Shown here one piece after another: positions 31,657 through 55,556 of a DNA stretch of 55,556 bases. The notes beneath the pieces are model-generated. The model saw only the letters and a program-made list of their open reading frames with translations. It did not search any database and had not been told where the DNA came from. The stretch is from an uncultured Spirochaetia bacterium (GTDB lineage Bacteria > Oederibacteriota > PGYV01 > CAYGHG01): the NCBI GenBank assembly GCA_964349515.1, contig CAYGHG010000003.1:1-55556 (forward strand). The letters run 5' to 3'. The position numbers were made by a program, and so were the translations under genes. Each line of letters begins with the position of its first letter. Position 1 is the first letter of the stretch.

Positions 31657-31965
31657 TCATCTCTTTTCCCTTTTCTTAGCAACAGACCTGCCATAGGGGG
31701 CTTCTGTCTCTTTGAGCATATTATCCGCGTATTTATGCAGAACGCTGGAAATCAGGGTCTGGTATGGCATGCCTTCTCGCACTGCTTTTTCCTTGATTTT
31801 ATTCAGGTCGTTCTCGTTTACCCTCATAGTAATGATTTTTCTTTTTCTCATAGAAGCCAAATCCCGCTCTATCTGTTTTCTTTTAGCGCCTGTAACAGGC
31901 GCAAATTCGTGTAAATGATCCTGTATCCACTGTTCTTCCTTATCAAGCTTGTATTTTAGCTTCAT
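31657..31965 (-). CDS. BrnA/CopG-like (RHH) antitoxin
   Basis: ITMRVNENDLNKIKEKAVREGMPYQTLISSVLHKY; overlaps the upstream toxin stop. Confidence 0.85.
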   Translation of the reverse strand: MKLKYKLDKEEQWIQDHLHEFAPVTGAKRKQIERDLASMRKRKIITMRVNENDLNKIKEKAVREGMPYQTLISSVLHKYADNMLKETEAPYGRSVAKKREKR

Positions 31966-32228
31966 TTCCTTCCTCCAAAAATTTTATTCAGTTTCCTGCA
32001 GGGATATGCTGTTTTTATTATATGCCGGCCCTCAACATCGTATAAGAACGGTACCGCATGCACATATCCCTTGTATCTCATGACGAAAATATTCTGCTCC
32101 GGCCGCGATGTATTCTCCAATATCTGGATATATCTTCCTTCACTCAATAAATCCGCAATCTCTTCCATATCAATATTCCTGTCTTTTAGCAGCCTTTCTG
32201 CCTTGGCTTTATCATAAACAAACTCCAT
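31962..32228 (-). CDS. BrnT-like ribonuclease toxin
   Basis: MEFVYD..K, IDMEEI, YVHAVPF..IIKTAYPCRK pattern; toxin-first order with an RHH antitoxin. Confidence 0.8.
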   Translation of the reverse strand: MEFVYDKAKAERLLKDRNIDMEEIADLLSEGRYIQILENTSRPEQNIFVMRYKGYVHAVPFLYDVEGRHIIKTAYPCRKLNKIFGGRK

Positions 32229-35258: not shown

Positions 35259-36307
35259 ACACCTCTTGCGAGTATTTTCATTATCAGCCTGTTTTCAGCA
35301 GGTTTTCCGACTGTAATCCTTGCAAAGCCTTTTGCCGCACCGTTGTTGAATATTCTAATAGAAACCCCCCTCTTTTGAAAGAGCTTTTTTAACGCCAAGG
35401 GGTCCTGCGCCTTAAAATAGAAAAAGTTTGCACTGCTATCCGCGCTTCCAAGTTTTTGTTGGAAGAACTTTCGCATTTTTTCCCGCTCGCTTATGATTGA
35501 ACTGACACTCTTTTGTATCTCTTTTTCATGTTTCAATCCCGCGAGAGCCGCCTTTATCGTCAGGGTGTTGATGTTATAGGGCAGTTTTACCTTATTGACG
35601 GCTTCGGTAATCTCTTTTGAAGCCGCCATGTAACCGAGCCTTATTCCCGCCATCGAAAAAGCCTTTGAAAAAGTGCGCATGACCACGAGATTTTCATGTT
35701 TTTTCATTTCAGATACGAAGGTTTTCCCCGAAAATTCATGATAAGCCTCATCGCAGACTACAATTGCCCCGCTGCGTTTTATTATTTCGAGTATTTTCTT
35801 TCTGTCAAAACAATTGCCCGTAGGGTTGTTTGGGTAAGCCAGAAATACAAATTTTGCCCTGTTTTTCTTTGCCTGCCTTATCACCTCTTCGGCGTCCAAA
35901 TCATGTTCTTTTCCGAGAGGCGCCTCTATTACTTTTGCGCCGGCAATTTTCGCAAGTATTGAATACATCTCAAAAGATGGCGCAGGCACTATGACGCTGT
36001 CCCCCTCTGAAACGAACGCGAGCAAAAGACAGTACAAAAGTTCATCAGAGCCGTTCCCGAGAGTTATAAGTTCCGGCTGGGTTTTAAGCCTTGCCGCCAG
36101 TTTACGTTTCAGTTCGTCAGGTACTTTTGGGTAGCGGTTAAAGGGCATTGCCGCTATTTCCTTCATTATCTGCCTGCGCACGGATGAGGGTATGTCATAA
36201 TTATTTTCATTTGAATCAACCTTGACAGCTGCTTTTACGAGGCCGGGGGAATAGGCGGCAAGCCCTCTCACGGCGGGCTTTATCATCAGTTTTATCCTGT
36301 TTTTCAT
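35255..36307 (-). CDS. hisC: Histidinol-phosphate aminotransferase (copy 2)
   Basis: DSNENNY, GNGSDE, YPNNPTG, DEAY, RTFSKAFSMAGIRLGY; within the his operon. Confidence 0.95.
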   Translation of the reverse strand: MKNRIKLMIKPAVRGLAAYSPGLVKAAVKVDSNENNYDIPSSVRRQIMKEIAAMPFNRYPKVPDELKRKLAARLKTQPELITLGNGSDELLYCLLLAFVSEGDSVIVPAPSFEMYSILAKIAGAKVIEAPLGKEHDLDAEEVIRQAKKNRAKFVFLAYPNNPTGNCFDRKKILEIIKRSGAIVVCDEAYHEFSGKTFVSEMKKHENLVVMRTFSKAFSMAGIRLGYMAASKEITEAVNKVKLPYNINTLTIKAALAGLKHEKEIQKSVSSIISEREKMRKFFQQKLGSADSSANFFYFKAQDPLALKKLFQKRGVSIRIFNNGAAKGFARITVGKPAENRLIMKILARGV

Positions 36308-37569
36308 TTCTGCCTTCTCACCCTGATGCTCATCATGTGGTTATTAAGCGTCTCTGTCCCTGCCATAAGCTCGGCGTCCGGACCGAATGTTTCAATCGCG
36401 GCTTTTGAGCATTTTACTATGTGAGTGTGCTTCATGAAATCCAGTACAGATAAAGCCGAGAAAAACCTGGCAGTCCCATTTGTCGGCAGTATGTGGTTTG
36501 AACCGGCCATGTAATCGCCAAAAGCCACGGGCGAATAATTCCCCTCAAATATGGCCGGCGAATTTGTTATCTGTTTTATTATTGAACCGGAGTTTTTCGC
36601 AAACACTGCGAGGTGCTCGGGAGCTTTGTATTCGGCGAGCATGACAGCCTCTTTCATGTTTTTTACGGTTATTATCGTTACATCAGCGGTACTTCCTGTT
36701 TTGTGGCGGATAAATAGCGCTTCCACGGCGTCAGCAACTGCTTTGGAATCTGTAATAAGCAGCGAGTGCCCGCCGGTATGCTCTGCCTGCGCCATAAGGT
36801 CGTAATAAATGAAAAGAGGGGCAGCTGTCTTGTCCGCGATTATTGTTATCTCAGACGGCCCGCTTATCGCGTCTATGCCGATTTTGCCGAAAAGCCTGCG
36901 CTTTGCCATGGTGGAGTATATGTTTCCCGGCCCTGCCACCTTATCAACTTTTGTTATGGATTGAGTCCCGAGCGCAAGCGCCGCCACGGCCTGAGCCCCG
37001 CCCACTCTATATATTTCCGATACTCCCGCCATGTACGCTGCCGCGAGTATGTAGGGATTTACCTCGCCTTTGCACCGCGGGGGCGACACTATTACTATTC
37101 TTTTAACGCCGGCTTCAACAGCGGGCACTGCCGCCATGAAAACGGTGGAAAAAAGAGGCGCCTGCCCGCCGGGAATGTAAATCCCTGCTGAATTCACAGG
37201 TATGTATTTATGCCTGACTGTATAACCCCTGTTTTTGTATGTATAGTCTTTTATGGATTTTCTCTGAAGCCGGTGGTAAGCCCTGATGTGCGACAGTGCT
37301 GTCTCCATGGCCTTTTTCAGTTTCCGGTCAAGACTAGAATAACTTTTTTTTATAAGTGCAGCCGGAACCCTAAAGGCCGCGGGCGCAACGCCGTCAAGTT
37401 TGAGGCTTAGTTCTTTAAGCGCCAAATCGCCTTTTTTTGCAACCTGCCCTATGATTTCGTCAACTGCCGCAGGGATTTCTTCGCTGCTTTTGTTAATTCT
37501 ATCTATGAGCGCGAGCGTATCTTTTTTTGCAGCCGCGCTGTATTTAATCCTTTTTATCATTTTTTTCAC
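36304..37569 (-). CDS. hisD: Histidinol dehydrogenase
   Basis: GIYIPGG, GGAQAVAALA, GPGNIY, GPSE, AQAEH, APEHL, GDY.AGSNHILPT. Confidence 0.97.
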   Translation of the reverse strand: MKKMIKRIKYSAAAKKDTLALIDRINKSSEEIPAAVDEIIGQVAKKGDLALKELSLKLDGVAPAAFRVPAALIKKSYSSLDRKLKKAMETALSHIRAYHRLQRKSIKDYTYKNRGYTVRHKYIPVNSAGIYIPGGQAPLFSTVFMAAVPAVEAGVKRIVIVSPPRCKGEVNPYILAAAYMAGVSEIYRVGGAQAVAALALGTQSITKVDKVAGPGNIYSTMAKRRLFGKIGIDAISGPSEITIIADKTAAPLFIYYDLMAQAEHTGGHSLLITDSKAVADAVEALFIRHKTGSTADVTIITVKNMKEAVMLAEYKAPEHLAVFAKNSGSIIKQITNSPAIFEGNYSPVAFGDYMAGSNHILPTNGTARFFSALSVLDFMKHTHIVKCSKAAIETFGPDAELMAGTETLNNHMMSIRVRRQK

Positions 37570-39940
37570 CTTTTATCCCTGCATCTTCTTCCTGCGCCGT
37601 TTCATTTTCAGCTGCAGAAGCCTCCGGTTCTGCATGCGTCCTTTCAGCAGAATATGCTTTTCTTTTTTTGACATTGGTCAGGTTGACCCTCTTTAATTCT
37701 TTGTCTATGAGCAAAGCCTCCACTTCTATGCCAAGCACTTCGCCGAGCGTTTTGGCGTAGCCCGCGCCGTTTAACTGCGGGCTTTTAATGACAAGCTTCA
37801 TCAGCGCTTTTTTCAGGTCAAAAGTCAGGAATTTTATCTTTTCAACGCCGGCGTTCTGTTTGGATGTGATTCTAAGTTTTTTTATGTCTTTCAAGCTTAT
37901 ACCGAGCTTTTTCTCTATATCTTTTGCTTTCATTTTTTTCTTTTTAAGTTTTTCCGCCTCTTTAAGCATCTTATTAAGCACTGCGCCTTCCGTCTTCTTT
38001 TCCTTTATGATGACGAGCGTGATGTCGTCATTTTGCGGGTAGCCCTGGGTAAAATCCCGCAGCTCGTTATTTATTGCGTCAATAATTTCGGCGGATTTCA
38101 GCCCGGCGCATTTTATGATTGCCTCAACAAAACGTTTTTCACCGTACTGTTCTCTTTTTCCGTTCATCGCCTCGGTTATGCCGTCGGTGTAAACGGCAAT
38201 CAAATCGTCCTTTTCAAGCTTAACGGTCTCCTCAACCATAACTTTTTTAAAGAGATCCTCGTCCGGCAGGTTTATTCCCAGCGGAAAACCTTTTGGTTTG
38301 ACATAATATACCTTTTTTTCTTTTGCCCTGTAAAGAATCAGCGCATCGTGGCCTGCGCTCGCAAAATTTATCCTTCTGGTTACAGAGTCAAGCACCAGGT
38401 AAAAAGCGGTTACAAACATGCCTTTGCGCATGTCTTCCTTGACGAAAGTGTTTACTTTGGTCAGTACGCTTTTGGCTGATTTGTTCATATGCGCGACCAG
38501 GCGCATGACCGTCCTGGTAATGGTCATGACCAGAGAGCCGGGCACGCCTTTGCCTGATACGTCCGCCACCACAACGCCTATCAGCCTTGTGCCTACCTTC
38601 ATGACGTCATAATAGTCGCCGCCTACTTCTTTTGCCGAGCGGTAAAGCGCCGAGATGTCAAACCCTTCGGTTTCCGGCAGCTGTTTTGGAAGCAGTGTGT
38701 GCTGTATTTCCTTTGCAACAGCTATTTCCTTCTGAAGTTTTTCCTGCTCTATCAGGGACTCCTGCGCGCCTTTGAACTTTACCGCCATATCGTTGAAAGC
38801 CCGGGCAATCTGCGAGAACTCGTCCTCGCCTTCTAACTCAATCCTGTGGTCAAGCCTGCCGTCGCCTATCGCGCGCACGCCTTCGCGCAGAGTCATAATG
38901 GGTTTGGTGAGCATGCCAAGCAGTATATAAATCCCGACAGCCGAAGCCAGAAAAACAAGGCCGCTCATAAATGCCAGATTAAACTTTTTCCCCTCCATAA
39001 CGCGCGAGAGCATCTTTTCAGGAACTACAATATATGCGGTCCCGAGTTTTTCACCTTTAAAAACCACTTCAGAAGATATTTCATATCTTTTTAAATACCG
39101 TTTTACCGATGCCCCCTGTATTTCAGCCGAACTGAAAGGTTTTTCCTTTTCAGAGTGCACCGAGTATATTTTTTTAACGTCGTTATGGGCTATTATCGTG
39201 CCTTCAGCGTCTGCCACAAACAGTTCTCCTATGCCTTCATTGCTGAACTGTATTTCCCTGAGCACTTTAAGAAGCTGAAGGTAATTGCCTTTTAACAGCC
39301 GTTCCTTGCTTGATTCGGCAATGGAGCGGGTGAGTTCGGCGTTATACTGCAAAAACCTGTTTTTCAGCCCTTCTCTCTCGTGGTTTACAAAAAAAACATA
39401 AGAAGAAGCTATAAGCACAAGTATAAAAACCGTTGTAGCAAGTACAAAGCGCTCCCGCACGCTGCGTATCGGGCTTGAAAGTTTTTTGAAAAAATCAGCA
39501 ACAGTAGGTTTTGAATAATACTTGACCAGGTGAAGTTCGTTGCCTCTTTCAGTTATCTTATAACTGCTTTTATCCGTGAGTTTTCTGATAATCCAGAGCC
39601 CGAGGCCCCCTTTTTTTCCTATGTTCACATAGTGATTTAAATCCGGGGTCCTGAAGCTTTCCCAATTAAAGCTTCTTCCCGTATCTATCACGGTTATGTA
39701 CAACCCCTTTTTTCTGGCCTGAATTTCAAAGGCCATATCGCCTTCAGCCTCCCTGTATGCATGTTTTATAAGATTCGCACACACCTCGTCTATGACAACA
39801 GCAAGATTGTTCATGTCTTTGTAGGAAAAATTATTATCGAGGGCTATTTTTCTAACCTGCTCTTTTACATCGTTTAGATAGGCGGGCTTGGCCGGGTAAG
39901 CGAACTTGTATTCCGCAAAGAGTTCGTTCTTAAAAAACAT
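37544..39940 (-). CDS. Fusion: RsbW-like HATPase_c + TM sensor + HAMP + SpoIIE/PP2C phosphatase + HTH-like tail
   Basis: DEVCANLIKHAY / DTG / GGLGL; two TMs; HAMP (DEFSQIARAFNDM); EVGGDYYD, DVSGKG, YTDGITEA, NDDIT; basic helical C-terminus. Confidence 0.9.
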   Translation of the reverse strand: MFFKNELFAEYKFAYPAKPAYLNDVKEQVRKIALDNNFSYKDMNNLAVVIDEVCANLIKHAYREAEGDMAFEIQARKKGLYITVIDTGRSFNWESFRTPDLNHYVNIGKKGGLGLWIIRKLTDKSSYKITERGNELHLVKYYSKPTVADFFKKLSSPIRSVRERFVLATTVFILVLIASSYVFFVNHEREGLKNRFLQYNAELTRSIAESSKERLLKGNYLQLLKVLREIQFSNEGIGELFVADAEGTIIAHNDVKKIYSVHSEKEKPFSSAEIQGASVKRYLKRYEISSEVVFKGEKLGTAYIVVPEKMLSRVMEGKKFNLAFMSGLVFLASAVGIYILLGMLTKPIMTLREGVRAIGDGRLDHRIELEGEDEFSQIARAFNDMAVKFKGAQESLIEQEKLQKEIAVAKEIQHTLLPKQLPETEGFDISALYRSAKEVGGDYYDVMKVGTRLIGVVVADVSGKGVPGSLVMTITRTVMRLVAHMNKSAKSVLTKVNTFVKEDMRKGMFVTAFYLVLDSVTRRINFASAGHDALILYRAKEKKVYYVKPKGFPLGINLPDEDLFKKVMVEETVKLEKDDLIAVYTDGITEAMNGKREQYGEKRFVEAIIKCAGLKSAEIIDAINNELRDFTQGYPQNDDITLVIIKEKKTEGAVLNKMLKEAEKLKKKKMKAKDIEKKLGISLKDIKKLRITSKQNAGVEKIKFLTFDLKKALMKLVIKSPQLNGAGYAKTLGEVLGIEVEALLIDKELKRVNLTNVKKRKAYSAERTHAEPEASAAENETAQEEDAGIKGEKNDKKD

Positions 39941-41328
39941 CAGCGGTTCTCCTTTGTTTCTATTTCCCTGATTAACGAATTAACTTCCTTGAGGTTGTCT
40001 ATGGCAAGTTTATTATATTGGTCAATCTCCAGAATTTTCATCCAGGCCGCACGCGCGCCTTCATAGTTTTCCTTTAAATACAGCTCAACGCCTTCTTTGT
40101 ACAGAGCGATTATCGCAGCGCTGTATTTGGCGGCCTTAGAGTTCTCCGACATACTTTTTATCAGCGATATGTAGTAGGCGGTATTCATGTACTGCGGGTC
40201 CATTTTTCTTACAGCTTCAAACTCCAACAGCGCGGTTGCGTAATCATATTCATAGTACAGCTCCAATCCCCTGGCATAACGTGCGGCTTTCTGCTGTTCT
40301 TTACGCTGCGCCTCGCCCGTGAGTCTGTCTATCCTGTCACGCATATCTTTTAACTCTTTCGCGGCAAACAGCCTTGCTTCCCTTTCTATCTGTTTCCTGC
40401 GGTTTTCTTCTATATTGGCGCGCTCCTCAAATATGTCCCCGCCAAATCTGTACTTAAGAGACACTCTGTGCTGGAAGCCCGGTTCTGCAACAAAAAAACC
40501 GTAATCAACAGCGCCGTACCCGGGTATTTCAATGCCGAGCCCCGCGGAAAAAATCATATCAGTATTAAAGCCTATTCTTAATGAAAAAACCTTGTAGATT
40601 ATCGTATTAATTCCCGCACTTATCTGAGGCCCGGCGTTAAATGCCCATCCTGCGTCAAGATACCCCTCTGCACTGATATCTTCCGTGACCCCCCTTTTGT
40701 AACATCCTGACAGCATCAGCACTACGGGAAAATCTCCGGGCTGTGACTCAAGTTTTATTGAAGGGCCGAAAATATTTCTAACAGCCAGCCCGGCATCAAA
40801 CGAATGCTCTTCATCCTTAAAAACCGCATACACCGCACCCAAATCAACCCCGAATCCCGTATCGGAATAACCGCCAAGAAAGTGAAAACTGTATTTAATG
40901 CCCGCCCCCAGCTTTCCGTCAAGAAACCCCATACCCCAGCCTGCGTATATCTCACCGATATTCTGATTTTCCTGCGATAAAATTACACTTTCAGAATCTC
41001 TAAAATCAATACCCGCGGTAGTTATTAACGCGGCTGATATACCGAAAACACCGAGTTCCAGAGTGGAAAGCCCGAACACAAGATAACTGTAATATGTGTC
41101 AGGCATAAGCGGGGAAAAAGAGGCATGTATTTCATTTTTGGAAAGCCCATACAGCGTCGCGGGGTTAAAAAACATGGCAGCCGCGTCATCTGACGCCGAG
41201 GAATAGGCCCCTCCAAGCGACTGTGCCTTTACGTTTGTACCTATGTCAAGCGGGCTTGTAAGCCCCTGAGAGGCATATATCCACACGGAAAAAAACATCC
41301 CAAACAGGCATAAAATACCCCTTTTCAT
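39940..41328 (-). CDS. PorV/PorQ-like beta-barrel protein with C-terminal coiled coil and TPRs
   Basis: Signal peptide; KAQSLGGAYSSASDDAAAMFFNPATL; GFGVDLG; HRVSLKYRF barrel end; two TPR-like segments. Confidence 0.8.
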   Translation of the reverse strand: MKRGILCLFGMFFSVWIYASQGLTSPLDIGTNVKAQSLGGAYSSASDDAAAMFFNPATLYGLSKNEIHASFSPLMPDTYYSYLVFGLSTLELGVFGISAALITTAGIDFRDSESVILSQENQNIGEIYAGWGMGFLDGKLGAGIKYSFHFLGGYSDTGFGVDLGAVYAVFKDEEHSFDAGLAVRNIFGPSIKLESQPGDFPVVLMLSGCYKRGVTEDISAEGYLDAGWAFNAGPQISAGINTIIYKVFSLRIGFNTDMIFSAGLGIEIPGYGAVDYGFFVAEPGFQHRVSLKYRFGGDIFEERANIEENRRKQIEREARLFAAKELKDMRDRIDRLTGEAQRKEQQKAARYARGLELYYEYDYATALLEFEAVRKMDPQYMNTAYYISLIKSMSENSKAAKYSAAIIALYKEGVELYLKENYEGARAAWMKILEIDQYNKLAIDNLKEVNSLIREIETKENR

Positions 41329-43403: not shown

Positions 43404-44321
43404 TTACTTTTTATCTTCCTTGAGCCATGTTTCGGGTATCATTTCAGTGTCTATTTCCTGCTCCCTCCACGTAGCGCCTTCTTTTACCGCATCCGGTTTT
43501 TCTTCCTCCGCCCTGGAAGACGAATAAACCCTGTATGAAACTCCTGCCCTATAGAGCAGCCTGTCATATCTGTTTAGCAGTGCATCCTGAGCGTAAAAAA
43601 GCCCTTCCACGCCTATGGAAAACCTGAAACCATTATCAAACTGAATTACCGCTTTCGGGATAATGTAAGCGCTGCCTCCTTCATTTGAATCAAAATTATA
43701 TTCCGTCTCAACGGTGAGATCCAAAGAATGCCTGTCATCGCTGTATGCCCTGTATCCTAAAACTCCTGACGCACCGAATGTGTAAGGCGCACCATTTATT
43801 AATCCGGCTTCTCCTGACACTCCGGCCCCCCATATAAACTGCCCTACTGCGCCGTCCGTTTCAGCCGCAGCAAAGAAACCGTAGAAATTTCCACGGTTCA
43901 GCAACCCTTCGGCAAATTCTCCCCAGACACCCGGCATCTTAAACCCCGCAGTAACATTAAGCAGTTCTTCCACTCTTTTATGCGCCGATACATATACCGA
44001 GTGCAGGTCATTTCTGTCTTCATTCCCTGATTTCTGCGTTATGTAGGTGAAGTACAAACCCGCGGCATATCCGTCAGGAAGCCCCACCCTCGCGCCCGCC
44101 TCGTATAAAATACCCCTCAGCGGCTCGCTTCTCTCCTGCCACTCACCGGAAACAGGAAGAAAAAAATCCTCATACAAAGCCGAGTACTCAAAATATTTTT
44201 CACTGTATACGGCGTCAACGTCAAGAACTCCCGGAAATGAACCGGAAATACGGTATATTGGCGCGGCGCTCAAAGAAAAAACAGATAAAAGCATTATCAA
44301 AAACGCGGCGGTCCGCTTCAC
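43404..44321 (-). CDS. Exported hypothetical protein, probable outer-membrane beta-barrel
   Basis: Signal peptide; Gly/aromatic-rich alternating strands; acidic C-terminal tail. Confidence 0.65.
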   Translation of the reverse strand: MKRTAAFLIMLLSVFSLSAAPIYRISGSFPGVLDVDAVYSEKYFEYSALYEDFFLPVSGEWQERSEPLRGILYEAGARVGLPDGYAAGLYFTYITQKSGNEDRNDLHSVYVSAHKRVEELLNVTAGFKMPGVWGEFAEGLLNRGNFYGFFAAAETDGAVGQFIWGAGVSGEAGLINGAPYTFGASGVLGYRAYSDDRHSLDLTVETEYNFDSNEGGSAYIIPKAVIQFDNGFRFSIGVEGLFYAQDALLNRYDRLLYRAGVSYRVYSSSRAEEEKPDAVKEGATWREQEIDTEMIPETWLKEDKK

Positions 44322-53412: not shown

Positions 53413-55556
53413 CTACCTTATTATGGTGAATTTAACCGTAATTATTTTCTGCAGGCCGGTGTCCGTTCTGGCCCTGATTACGGCTATGTATAGGCCCGAA
53501 GAGACGCTCTCAACACCGGTCAGCAGGTTCCACCTGAGTTCGTGAGGCGACGGGCCGCTGTTATCGAGGTCAACTATCAGTTCTCCCGCGAGGTTGTATA
53601 TTCTCGCGTTCACTTTGGTGCCTGCCATAGCGTCAAACGTTATCAGCAACCTGTCAGTATTCTCTATTTTAAGCGGATTCGGTATAACCTTTACGTTATT
53701 TATGACTTCATACCCGTTATGCAGCACTGTAATATTCGCGGTAGCCACAGTCTCATACCCGTTAACATCCACATTGACTATCTGTATGTAGTATACTCCG
53801 TTATCCACTATCAGGCCGTTATTGTTGGTTCCGTTCCATTCAAGCGTAATGTCTGAATAATGTATTGTAAGCTTATTCATACCCGCCTCGTCAGGATAGA
53901 ACGCGGCCGGAGGCGCAGGGTCAAGCGTCAGAGTCTTTGAACCCTTTATAACCGGCGAAGTAACAGGTATTATCTTGACCAGCTCCCCGGCGGTATTGTA
54001 TATTCTGGCCTCTGTTTTTACATTGTTAGTAAGCACAGTCACGCTGTCCACAGATATATGCTCGTAACCGTAGTCGTCTTTTACAACGACTTTTATGTAA
54101 TACACGCCGTTGCCGACGCTTGCGCCCTGGTCGTTTTTGCCGTTCCATTTATATATGTACCCGCCGACATCAATTACCACTTCGCTCCCGTCGTCAGGGC
54201 TGAATGTGCTTCCGCTCGTGATGGTGAAGTTATCAACCATCTCATAAGCCCCCGATGAACTTATGTGTTTCACAACCTCGCCGGCCTCATTGTAAACATA
54301 TATGTCAAGAATATAAACAGGCGTCGGCGACACGGTAGGAGTCTGCGTGGCAGTCGGAGATACCGTGTACGTGGATGTCTGAGTCATAGTCTCCGTAGCG
54401 GTAAGCGTAGCCGTAGGAGTCCCGGTCAGCGTTATAGTAGGCGTAGCCGTAAGCGTCGAAGTAGGCGTAGCCGTAGAAGTCGGCGAATGAACCGGCGTAT
54501 TTGTAGAAGTGCTAGTAGGCGTAGCCGTCCGGGTTATGGAAGGCGTTATAGTTACCGTAATCGTTCCTGTAATAGTCGGCGTCACTGTCTGAGTGACAGT
54601 CTGTGATACCGTCGGCGTTGACGTCTGTGAAACCGTTTCGGTAATAGTAGGCGTTACCGTCACTGTCACAGTGTCCGTTTCGGTAACCGTAGGTGTTACA
54701 GTTTCAGTCACAGTAGGCGTGACAGTCTCCGAAACAGTAGGAGTCACCGTCTCAGTTATTGTCGGCGTTACGGTCTCCGTTATAGTCGGCGTGACTGTTT
54801 CCGTCACTGTAGGCGTTATGGTCTCCGTCACTGTAGGCGTTGCAGTTTCAGTAACAGTATCTGTAGGCGTTACGGTGTCTGTAATTGTCGGTGTTACAGT
54901 CTCTGTAATCGTAGGCGTCACAGTCTCAGTGATTGTCGGTGTCGCAGTTTCGGTAATCGTAGGCGTTGTCGTCTCTGTAATCGTAGGCGTTACTGTCTCT
55001 GTCATTGTAGGAGTTACTGTCTCTGTTATCGTAGCAGTGACAGTCTCGGTTATGGTCGGAGTTACGGTTTCTGTTATTGTCGGCGTTATAGTTTCTGTAA
55101 TCGTCGGGGTAACGGTCTCTGTTATTGTAGGCGTTACTGTTTCTGTAACAGTAGGTGTCGAAGTTTCAGTAATTGTAGGTGTTACGGTATCAGTAATTGT
55201 AGGTGTTACGGTTTCTGTAATAGTCGGTGTCACCGTCTCTGTTATAGTCGGTGTCACGGTCTCAGTAATAGTCGGCGTTGCCGTTTCAGTAATTGTAGGC
55301 GTAACTGTCTCGGTTATTGTCGGTGTCACAGTCTCCGTAATCGTAGGTGTCACGGTTTCGGTTATTGTCGGTGTTGCTGTCTCTGTAACAGTGTCAGTAG
55401 GTGTAATTGTCTCAGTTATAGTCGGTGTCACAGTCTCCGTTATCGTCGGCGTTACCGTCTCAGTTATTGTCGGTGTTACCGTTTCTGTAATTGTCGGTGT
55501 TACTGTTTCCGTGATGGTTGGAGTAACCGTCTCAGTAATCGTCGGCGTTACTGTCT
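53413..55556 (-). CDS. Large exported protein, 5'-truncated: Thr/Pro repeat stalk (TPTITETV)n and three FlgD/T9SS-CTD-like Ig domains
   Basis: Frame is open to the window end; C-terminal repeats of IYN.AGE.V..W.G..G.Y; terminal PNP..IYN..SGLY..KF.II domain. Confidence 0.9.
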   Translation of the reverse strand, partial: TVTPTITETVTPTITETVTPTITETVTPTITETVTPTITETVTPTITETITPTDTVTETATPTITETVTPTITETVTPTITETVTPTITETATPTITETVTPTITETVTPTITETVTPTITDTVTPTITETSTPTVTETVTPTITETVTPTITETITPTITETVTPTITETVTATITETVTPTMTETVTPTITETTTPTITETATPTITETVTPTITETVTPTITDTVTPTDTVTETATPTVTETITPTVTETVTPTITETVTPTITETVTPTVSETVTPTVTETVTPTVTETDTVTVTVTPTITETVSQTSTPTVSQTVTQTVTPTITGTITVTITPSITRTATPTSTSTNTPVHSPTSTATPTSTLTATPTITLTGTPTATLTATETMTQTSTYTVSPTATQTPTVSPTPVYILDIYVYNEAGEVVKHISSSGAYEMVDNFTITSGSTFSPDDGSEVVIDVGGYIYKWNGKNDQGASVGNGVYYIKVVVKDDYGYEHISVDSVTVLTNNVKTEARIYNTAGELVKIIPVTSPVIKGSKTLTLDPAPPAAFYPDEAGMNKLTIHYSDITLEWNGTNNNGLIVDNGVYYIQIVNVDVNGYETVATANITVLHNGYEVINNVKVIPNPLKIENTDRLLITFDAMAGTKVNARIYNLAGELIVDLDNSGPSPHELRWNLLTGVESVSSGLYIAVIRARTDTGLQKIITVKFTIIR
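54580..55556 (-). repeat. 24-bp coding tandem repeat (TPTITETV), roughly 40 units visible
   Basis: 8-aa periodicity with highly variable third codon positions. Confidence 0.93.

Follow-up and report, generated by a model that had tools for sequence, protein, structure and literature searches.

The DNA analysed here, hereafter the window, is a stretch of 55,556 nucleotides (55.6 kb) from an uncultured Spirochaetia bacterium (GenBank assembly GCA_964349515.1, contig CAYGHG010000003.1). On its minus strand lies a gene for a protein of 798 amino acids (aa), in which an RsbW-type kinase, a transmembrane (TM) helix, a periplasmic Cache-like domain, a second TM helix, a HAMP domain, a PP2C phosphatase, a basic helical tail and an acidic disordered end follow one another in this order (table 1). 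The gene is wedged between a PorV-like gene upstream and hisD downstream. We describe this enzyme, its tail, which is related to the helix-turn-helix (HTH) pairs of transposases, and the gene neighbourhoods of its relatives, from which a role as a partner-switching enzyme driven from the cell envelope can be proposed.

A kinase and a phosphatase on either side of a membrane sensor

The open reading frame (ORF) begins with an ATG codon, located 7 nt after an AAGGAG Shine–Dalgarno sequence. The start codon and the stop codon of the preceding gene have 1 nt in common (TGATG), and hisD starts within the last 17–26 nt of the enzyme gene. It is because of these overlaps that the genes are considered to form an operon; terminator-like sites in the window occur at chance level (19 versus 19.9 expected), no clear promoter was detected in it, and no RNA run was found to contain the locus. 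In an independent metagenome run, the locus was covered at a depth of approximately 10x with zero indels, and the junction between the PP2C domain and the tail was crossed by one unitig, indicating that the fusion is not an assembly artefact. Homologues covering 100% of the protein display 35–78% identity to it, the nearest (53–78%) coming from metagenome-assembled genomes (MAGs) of Candidatus Goldbacteria/Goldiibacteriota, which together with the window are called here the Goldbacteria clade. The full-length AlphaFold2 (AF2) model has a mean predicted local distance difference test score (pLDDT) of 84.

Table 1. Position and supporting evidence of the features of the enzyme gene and of its two neighbours in the window.
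Feature	Residues	Position	Strand	Evidence or remark
Kinase/membrane sensor/phosphatase/HTH-tail protein, whole gene	1-798	37544..39940	-	ORF list, Pfam, full-length AF2 model
RsbW/SpoIIAB-type serine kinase (HATPase_c_2), cytoplasmic	16-140	39521..39895	-	Pfam, PDB RsbW match, invariant residues
TM helix 1	~165-187	39380..39448	-	Kyte-Doolittle maximum 2.36
Periplasmic single-Cache-like sensor domain	~188-320	38981..39379	-	Weak dCache_1 match, homologue annotation, AF2
TM helix 2	~321-344	38909..38980	-	Kyte-Doolittle maximum 2.2; runs on into HAMP helix in AF2
HAMP	341-386	38783..38920	-	Pfam 8e-12, 45.7 bits
PP2C/PPM serine phosphatase (SpoIIE family)	454-646	38003..38581	-	Pfam 5.9e-46, 157.3 bits versus cutoff 25
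HTH subdomain 1 (HTH1), three helices, diverged in the Goldbacteria clade	651-695	37856..37990	-	AF2 helices 651-667, 672-679, 683-695
HTH subdomain 2 (HTH2), with start of the long helix to residue 770	707-751	37631..37822	-	AF2, conserved residues
Acidic, mostly disordered C-terminal end	771-798	37547..37630	-	Isoelectric point (pI) 4.27; pLDDT <50 for 773-798; missing from most homologues
hisD, downstream of the enzyme		36304..37569	-	Histidinol_dh 7e-133; junction sequence
PorV/PorQ-family outer-membrane beta-barrel with C-terminal TPR, 462 aa, translationally coupled		39940..41328	-	NCBIfam PorV_fam, TPR

A first-pass annotation, made from the letters of the window alone, had described an N-terminal RsbW-type HATPase_c domain with intact N, G1 and G2 boxes, an extracytoplasmic domain between two TM helices, a HAMP domain and a SpoIIE phosphatase with metal-binding aspartates, the gene being placed between a PorV-like gene and hisD. 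Each of these elements was recovered. The kinase domain matches HATPase_c_2 (2.9e-20, 73 bits versus a cutoff of 27.4), its closest solved relative is RsbW (PDB 6m36, E = 1.7e-10), and the residues E52, N56, D86, G88 and G111-G114 of the three boxes are invariant in the alignment of 60 homologous sequences in which residue conservation was scored. All NCBIfam equivalog cutoffs are missed by a wide margin (RsbW: 67.3 bits versus 145; rsbW_low_gc: 58.8 versus 155; SpoIIAB: 26.3 versus 135). Identity as an RsbW orthologue was rejected on these scores, the domain being kin to RsbW but not its orthologue, and identity as a SiaA orthologue was rejected in the same way, its score lying far under the equivalog cutoff.

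TM helix 1 is preceded by a basic stretch (KKLSSPIRSVRER) and is part of a long AF2 helix (residues 161-217). This basic stretch, together with the HAMP domain that comes after TM helix 2, indicates that the domain enclosed by the two helices is periplasmic and that all the rest of the protein is cytoplasmic. The enclosed domain (approx. 130 aa) gives a weak Pfam match to dCache_1 (0.068); in homologues it carries the precomputed annotation sCache_3_2 (PF17203), and in AF2 it consists of a long helix and a six-stranded sheet (pLDDT approx. 90). A long linker helix (residues 374-416 in AF2) then leads from HAMP into the phosphatase, whose aspartates D442, D445, D460, D586, D638 and D639 are invariant in the same 60 sequences and whose closest solved relative is Rv1364c (PDB 3ke6, E = 1.1e-10). 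Neither a receiver domain (Response_reg, REC) nor a DDE/rve catalytic domain was matched by Pfam in the 798-aa protein.

The helix-turn-helix tail

The same annotation had noted some 120 aa of basic, helical sequence after the phosphatase, and had likened them to the HTH pair of IS3/IS481-type transposases. The tail (residues approx. 647-770) is indeed strongly basic, with a pI of 10.1 and 33 lysines or arginines in 124 aa, and is helical in AF2 with a pLDDT of approximately 85-95. Modelled by itself from a 39-sequence alignment, it forms two three-helix bundles (helices 6-22, 27-34 and 38-51, and 62-74, 80-91 and 97-106, in tail numbering) separated by a linker of lower confidence and followed by a long helix, with a mean pLDDT of 85. 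Both bundles are confidently predicted, so that the tail appears neither disordered nor foreign to HTH folds. In the numbering of the whole protein, the HTH2 region comprises helices 707-719, 725-736 and 742-751, and then the long helix 757-784.

Pfam gives no match past residue 650 of the 798-aa protein, and it is through its relatives that the nature of the tail can be recognized. Full-length homologues at approximately 35-42% identity carry precomputed annotations to transposase-type HTH families. Three distant homologous tails were rescanned with Pfam: thresholds were exceeded in the tail of P0054 by HTH_28 (40.3 versus 25), HTH_23 (35 versus 24.6), HTH_29 (31.5 versus 28.1) and HTH_Tnp_1 (28.5 versus 24.1), and HTH_32 remained slightly below threshold on homologous tails (29.8-31.4 versus 33.7). 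A profile of 45 tails from the Goldbacteria clade aligned over 121 columns to a profile of 58 distant tails (hhalign, 98.8%, E = 4.6e-17). This match to Pfam-positive tails indicates that the window tail is a diverged copy of the same HTH module. Within the module, HTH1 of the window tail aligns with the HTH_28/HTH_23 region of the distant tails, and HTH2 aligns with the HTH_32 region and with the RED subdomain of Sleeping Beauty (5unk, E = 0.009). HTH2 is the better conserved half, with P721 and R760 invariant and L749, R751 and L754 nearly so; in the Goldbacteria clade it retains P721, R760 and an ELKR-x-x-L helix. The tail as a whole evolves faster than the remainder of the protein, with 35-48% versus 54-63% identity when the same non-nearest members of the clade are compared.

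Structural comparisons gave fainter echoes. A profile search of the PDB with the tail yielded weak matches, the best one to a CRISPR-repeat-binding HTH protein (1.4e-3), then to Sleeping Beauty RED (9e-3), and also to CENP-B and TnsB. A Foldseek list, no entry of which reached significance, was composed mostly of bipartite DNA binders (Pax paired domain, POU, Sleeping Beauty RED subdomain, homeodomains), which is only suggestive. The likeness to a transposase-type HTH pair is thus upheld, whereas the specific attribution to IS3/IS481 is not, as the best echoes are found in the paired-like domains of IS630/Tc1-mariner elements, represented by Sleeping Beauty RED. Paired-like bipartite domains of IS630/Tc1-mariner and related IS481/IS3 transposases share with the tail the arrangement of two three-helix HTH and a linker; they differ from it in that the module is here C-terminal rather than N-terminal, comes with neither a DDE domain nor insertion-sequence ends and, in the window copy, is too diverged for Pfam.

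The tail profile was then searched exhaustively against 1.84 billion representative proteins, and matched 1990 of them at E <= 1e-3 and 391 at E <= 1e-10. Among 144 new representatives, approximately 80 belonged to the same enzyme family or were fragments of it, some of them extended at the C-terminus by TPR repeats or by one to three STAS domains, and approximately 60 were tandem copies of the HTH pair. When 10 of these tandem-HTH proteins were scanned with Pfam, a DDE/rve domain was found in none, and six had HTH domains only. An active transposase was rejected on this ground, the DDE domain being missing both here and in the 10 related HTH-pair proteins, and for the same reason ‘domesticated’, the word used in the first-pass annotation, is a fair description. 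As judged from sequence comparison, the tail module is a transposase-type DNA-binding domain that was recruited repeatedly into non-transposase proteins.

The other four of the 10 scanned proteins place the module in another membrane-enzyme context: P0168, P0171, P0186 and P0195 (514 to 1957 aa) display two N-terminal HTH pairs followed by family-2 glycosyltransferase (GT2) domains.

Relatives, neighbouring genes and probable STAS partners

Among the matches listed, full-length relatives are found in GTDB species genomes of Calditrichota, Ignavibacteria, Latescibacterota, KSB1, Eisenbacteria, Zixibacteria, Omnitrophota, FCPU426, Firestonebacteria and Krumholzibacteria. Per-domain hidden Markov models (HMMs) from our own alignments were applied to all fetched loci, and 25 tail-bearing enzyme loci from approximately 11 phylum-level lineages were identified among the matches listed, the tail being at the same position in each. 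In databases, these proteins are named ‘SpoIIE family protein phosphatase’, ‘RsbU / anti-sigma regulatory factor’ or, occasionally, ‘RsbU / transposase’. The first-pass annotation had allowed that the architecture might prove common and already characterized; common it is, in uncultured phyla, but our literature search found no description of the kinase-sensor-phosphatase-HTH architecture, nor of a link between PorV and Rsb proteins.

The association with the PorV-like gene is strict. A homologue lies directly upstream, on the same strand, in 19 of the 20 loci having upstream sequence, and the exception, L015, was rejected as a locus devoid of this gene, being an ORF-calling artefact. Almost the full length of the PorV_fam profile NF033709 (positions 7-325 of 326) is matched by the window copy (3.1e-19), although the latter, at 69.7 bits, stays under the cutoff of 90; homologues score above this cutoff in L002 (117.4) and L004 (113.4), and below it in L007 (84.1). 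Compared with PorV and PorQ of the type IX secretion system (T9SS), the window protein adds a C-terminal TPR region, which is present in 16 of 17 members of the PorV-like family. One gene further upstream, L002 has a giant protein whose T9SS type-A sorting domain scores above the curated cutoff (24.4 versus 23 bits); the giant protein of L005 has matches to T9SS C-terminal regions below the curated cutoffs.

A protein homologous to these giant T9SS-cargo proteins (phmmer, 5.3e-23) is also encoded in the window, at 53413-55431 (minus strand), approximately 12 kb from the cassette. It displays TPTITETV-type repeats, FlgD_ig and a weak Por_Secre_tail match (5e-4), and may run past the end of the window.

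On the other side of the enzyme, a STAS domain was found in 16 of the 23 tail-bearing loci with downstream sequence, either as a separate gene directly after the enzyme (13 loci) or fused to its C-terminus (L004, L007 and L016). Outside the Goldbacteria clade, L008 is the sole locus with downstream sequence in which STAS is missing. The phosphorylatable-serine motif YISSAG is retained in every STAS copy, and the STAS gene is often followed by one for a conserved TPR protein of approximately 375 aa. Furthermore, nine of the 13 separate STAS proteins end in a copy of the HTH2 of the tail (tail-HMM positions approx. 54-81 to 133-136, E from 1e-5 to 6e-8), against none of the 39 STAS proteins encoded at loci that lack a tail-bearing enzyme (Fisher p = 2e-7, for loci that are not phylogenetically independent). 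Fused variants with the order kinase-sensor-PP2C-HTH-STAS (one to three STAS copies), or with TPR at the end, provide Rosetta-stone evidence that kinase, sensor, PP2C, HTH, STAS and TPR work together. No sigma-factor Pfam domain was detected within 10 kb in six related loci (L001, L002, L003, L005, L086 and L087).

Multi-STAS versions of the protein exist in L007 (9956-14362) and L016 (9965-14227), with three STAS domains after the HTH tail and two stand-alone STAS genes further downstream.

In several lineages, the system is split: the PorV-like gene, a sensor-PP2C protein, a kinase and a STAS protein are encoded by separate genes, and the tail is missing. Judging from these split systems, the pair of PorV-like protein and sensor-phosphatase seems to be the more ancient core; fusion of the kinase and presence of the HTH tail go hand in hand. 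Both arrangements were observed in one MAG (GCA_964593065.1), with a full tail-bearing cassette including STAS-HTH2 (L005) and a split paralogous cassette (L024) composed of a TPR-rich gene with porp/tprd-HMM matches, a sensor-PP2C gene, a STAS gene and a gene whose product has its kinase domain at the C-terminus. Paralogous systems can thus coexist in one genome.

The Goldbacteria clade stands apart in its downstream genes. Five independent loci were compared (the window, L001, L006, L086 and L087; the protein of L087 recurs on a second contig, L088), and their genes are arranged in a common order: alaS-ruvX-yceG ... RNase R, PorV-like gene, enzyme, hisDCBHAF. In all of them, hisD holds the position that the STAS gene takes in other phyla, and no STAS or TPR gene adjoins the enzyme.

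A STAS of a related type was found at other loci. In a Goldiibacteriota MAG (L025, 9965-11876) and in L023, L089 (6456-8375) and L091 (6455-8369), a kinase-less sCache-HAMP-PP2C protein (approx. 507 aa) is followed by a 122-124-aa STAS and a protein of approximately 325 aa, and no RsbW-like kinase lies within 8-10 kb of these cassettes. The STAS of this type shares the signature ‘SSAGWG’ with the tail-associated STAS, and that of L025 is 38-39% identical to tail-type STAS versus 27-29% to the STAS of other split systems. The clade comprises 43 clusters, each time beside a kinase-less sCache-HAMP-PP2C gene. By its sequence, the L025-type STAS is one candidate trans partner for the kinase of the fusion in the Goldbacteria clade.

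Three further regions of the window, all on the minus strand, were noted in passing. Positions 31657-32228, inside a run of histidine/tryptophan biosynthesis genes, encode a toxin of 88 aa that resembles BrnT and an antitoxin of 102 aa that resembles CopG/BrnA, and L001 has a similar CopG-antitoxin gene at the equivalent place. A cluster of tRNA-Asp(GTC), tRNA-Tyr(GTA) and tRNA-Thr(TGT) occupies positions 78-804; the 174-aa plus-strand ORF at 77-601 was rejected as a spurious read-through of these tRNA genes. Finally, the 305-aa product of positions 43404-44321 starts with a signal-peptide-like segment and is not matched by Pfam; in L001, L086 and L087, the corresponding place after yceG is held by a gene of comparable length that lacks Pfam matches, the likeness being one of size and position.

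A proposed mechanism and its rivals

The closest functional parallel is SypE of Vibrio fischeri. SypE consists of an N-terminal serine kinase, a central receiver and a C-terminal phosphatase, and governs whether the STAS protein SypA is phosphorylated (PMC3610818); no known sigma factor serves as the target of SypA (PMC8256260). In both proteins, a single chain carries an N-terminal RsbW-like kinase and a C-terminal PP2C domain that flank a signal-receiving module. The SypE kinase requires the conserved asparagine N52 (PMC3610818), and the window protein has the invariant N56. The centre of SypE is a cytoplasmic REC domain, whereas that of the window protein is made of TM helix, periplasmic Cache, TM helix and HAMP; SypE lacks an HTH tail, and the coupling to a PorV/PorQ-like gene, a trait of the window family, does not figure in the abstract that describes SypE (PMC3610818). 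A cognate STAS gene in the same locus is missing in the window and present in relatives outside the Goldbacteria clade. SypE has a STAS protein as its substrate, and its output is not a sigma factor; by analogy of architecture, the window protein would work like SypE but is, for want of a REC domain, outside the SypE family.

We propose, with a probability of roughly 0.55, that the window protein is an inner-membrane, bifunctional partner-switching enzyme of SypE-like type, acting on a STAS partner and driven from the envelope, with the HTH pair as its output or coupling end. As in SypE, the two enzyme domains would determine whether the conserved serine in the STAS partner is phosphorylated. 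The membrane sensor would stand in place of the SypE receiver, and a periplasmic signal would shift the balance between kinase and phosphatase, with TM helix 1 acting on the kinase and TM helix 2, HAMP and the linker helix acting on the phosphatase. The latter route would fit the linker-mediated activation described as general for PPM phosphatases, in which an N-terminal regulatory domain acts via a helical linker (PMC12143880). As for the signal, the overlap of 1 nt and the universal linkage make the PorV-like-TPR protein its most plausible source, plausibly through the periplasmic TPR domain of this co-translated barrel. In the Goldbacteria clade, the STAS partner would be encoded away from the enzyme locus, as must be the case where the adjacent gene is missing.

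At the output end, the HTH pair would either bind DNA or dock the STAS partner. We prefer the former, at slightly less than even odds: the HTH pair would make the enzyme a membrane-tethered regulator that binds DNA, either by itself or with an HTH-carrying STAS partner. Since no sigma gene was detected within 10 kb in the six related loci, the best candidates for an output are indeed the HTH pair and the copy of HTH2 that STAS carries. Transmission of an envelope signal via an inner-membrane protein to a DNA-directed output is known from membrane-tethered regulators of the ToxR/CadC type and from FecA-FecR-FecI, the first element of the Fec system being an outer-membrane protein. The domain families of these systems are unrelated to those of the window protein, and they serve here as analogies for the proposed mechanism only. 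More speculatively, and in our opinion rather unlikely as a whole, the full cassette (T9SS-type cargo, PorV/PorQ-like-TPR barrel, enzyme, STAS-HTH2 and TPR protein) might constitute an undescribed, sigma-free trans-envelope pathway: the TPR arm of the barrel would inform the Cache domain about the state of the surface or of secretion, the enzyme would switch the phosphorylation of STAS-HTH2, and the HTH modules on both would form a phosphorylation-gated, membrane-tethered DNA-binding output.

Several observations weigh against the proposed enzyme and its output. The window tail alone matches no Pfam family, even at E <= 1, and Foldseek comparison of the two-domain tail model with the PDB gave nothing significant (best E = 0.6), probably owing to the presence of two small bundles on a flexible linker. 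In the Goldbacteria clade, HTH1 is devoid of the S-x-x-T-Y-Y-R recognition-helix motif of the family, and the G-x-x-G-L linker is shortened. The nearest relatives of the HTH pair outside the family are glycosyltransferase fusions or tandem HTH-only proteins, and a transcriptional output is not proven by the module itself. The packing of the domains against one another is uncertain in the full-length AF2 model (predicted template modelling score 0.51). All six frames of the window are devoid of STAS homologues and no sigma-factor domain was found among its scanned ORFs, in agreement with what the first-pass annotation had reported. Lastly, the fusion and the L025-type STAS could not be placed in one genome, as they share no contigs and the ERZ accessions are whole-metagenome assemblies.

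Other explanations have to be considered. The tail could be a protein docking module, and not a DNA binder, which would recruit STAS via the HTH2 copy on the latter, the output then being whatever free STAS binds. Such a role is consistent with the presence of HTH2 on STAS proteins solely beside tail-bearing enzymes, with HTH2 being the best conserved half of the tail, with the fusion of the same HTH pair to non-regulatory enzymes such as the GT2 glycosyltransferases and with the reported setting of PPM phosphatase specificity for STAS substrates by docking interactions (PMC11418112). We regard it as unlikely, though a serious contender, because four loci whose STAS has no detected HTH2, and the STAS-less Goldbacteria clade, still keep a confident and conserved tail, which is moreover as strongly basic as expected for nucleic-acid binding and whose parent Pfam families are DNA-binding. 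In a classical anti-sigma switch, the RsbW-like domain would sequester a sigma factor encoded at a distance, dephosphorylation of STAS would set this factor free and the tail would be accessory. This is the canonical logic of partner switching (PMC12143880; PMC11619594), and RsbW and SpoIIAB are the best named matches of the kinase domain; yet the lack of sigma-factor domains among the scanned window ORFs and within 10 kb in the six related loci, an RsbW equivalog score (67 bits) far under the 145-bit cutoff and the existence of well-known non-sigma outputs, such as that of SypA (PMC8256260), render it improbable.

The absence of adjacent STAS and TPR genes from all loci of the Goldbacteria clade raises the question of whether the system is there an orphaned, partly decayed remnant, having lost its partners and retaining a vestigial tail, with perhaps a kinase or phosphatase role on another substrate. 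The divergence of HTH1, the shortened linker, the lack of Pfam matches and the faster evolution of the tail would all agree with such decay. On the contrary, the catalytic residues and the key residues of the tail (P721, R760 and ELKR-x-x-L) are conserved across the clade, the tail is predicted by AF2 to fold confidently, the tight coupling to the PorV-like gene is retained and the tail-type STAS clade is present in Goldiibacteriota, and we thus hold decay to be very improbable. That the tail is a transposase fragment joined to the enzyme by insertion of an insertion sequence, by a frameshift or by mis-assembly was suggested by its relatedness to N-terminal HTH families of transposases; this possibility was rejected as next to nil, since the same tail occurs in 25 loci of approximately 11 phylum-level lineages among the matches listed, without a DDE domain, and the junction is covered without indels in the independent run. 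The SypE-like enzyme acting on a STAS partner is the reading that we retain.

This enzyme shares three families, PP2C, HATPase_c_2 and STAS with a phosphoserine motif, with the RsbU-RsbW-RsbV and SpoIIE-SpoIIAB-SpoIIAA systems, including the membrane sensor RsbU of Chlamydia, and differs from these systems by the fusion of kinase and phosphatase, the lack of a linked sigma factor and the addition of an HTH tail. As in HAMP-PPM phosphatases, a HAMP domain or coiled-coil linker precedes the PPM domain (PMC12143880). In the first-pass annotation, kinase and phosphatase were said to be kept normally in separate proteins: their fusion is borne out here, but it is not a novelty, as precedents exist in SypE (PMC3610818) and in Rv1364c of M. 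tuberculosis and OsaC of S. coelicolor, where the phosphatase and an anti-sigma kinase are likewise on one chain (PMC12143880). Rv1364c, the best PDB match of the PP2C domain, also includes a fused STAS, as do the enzymes of L004, L007 and L016. Nevertheless, Rv1364c and OsaC have cytoplasmic PAS or GAF sensors, neither a membrane sensor nor an HTH tail, and another order of domains (PAS, phosphatase, kinase, STAS in Rv1364c). Kinase-phosphatase fusions and the HAMP-PPM architecture were thus already known; new with respect to the literature searched are the periplasmic sensor between kinase and phosphatase, the presence of a transposase-type HTH pair on the enzyme as well as on its STAS partner, and the strict linkage to a PorV/PorQ-like gene.

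Partner switching is a major signalling device of bacteria, whose known outputs are sigma factors and a few enzymes, the targets being otherwise not known. If our proposal is true, it would add to these a direct DNA-binding or HTH-docking output, provided by a domesticated transposase module on the enzyme and on its STAS substrate. It would likewise place one periplasmic domain between an N-terminal kinase and a C-terminal phosphatase, an arrangement in which the two TM helices could drive opposing activities. The strict link to a PorV/PorQ-like protein across approximately 11 mostly uncultured phylum-level lineages hints at a regulatory role connected with the cell surface or with type IX secretion, and the proposal as a whole offers a testable function for genes annotated merely as ‘SpoIIE family protein phosphatase’.

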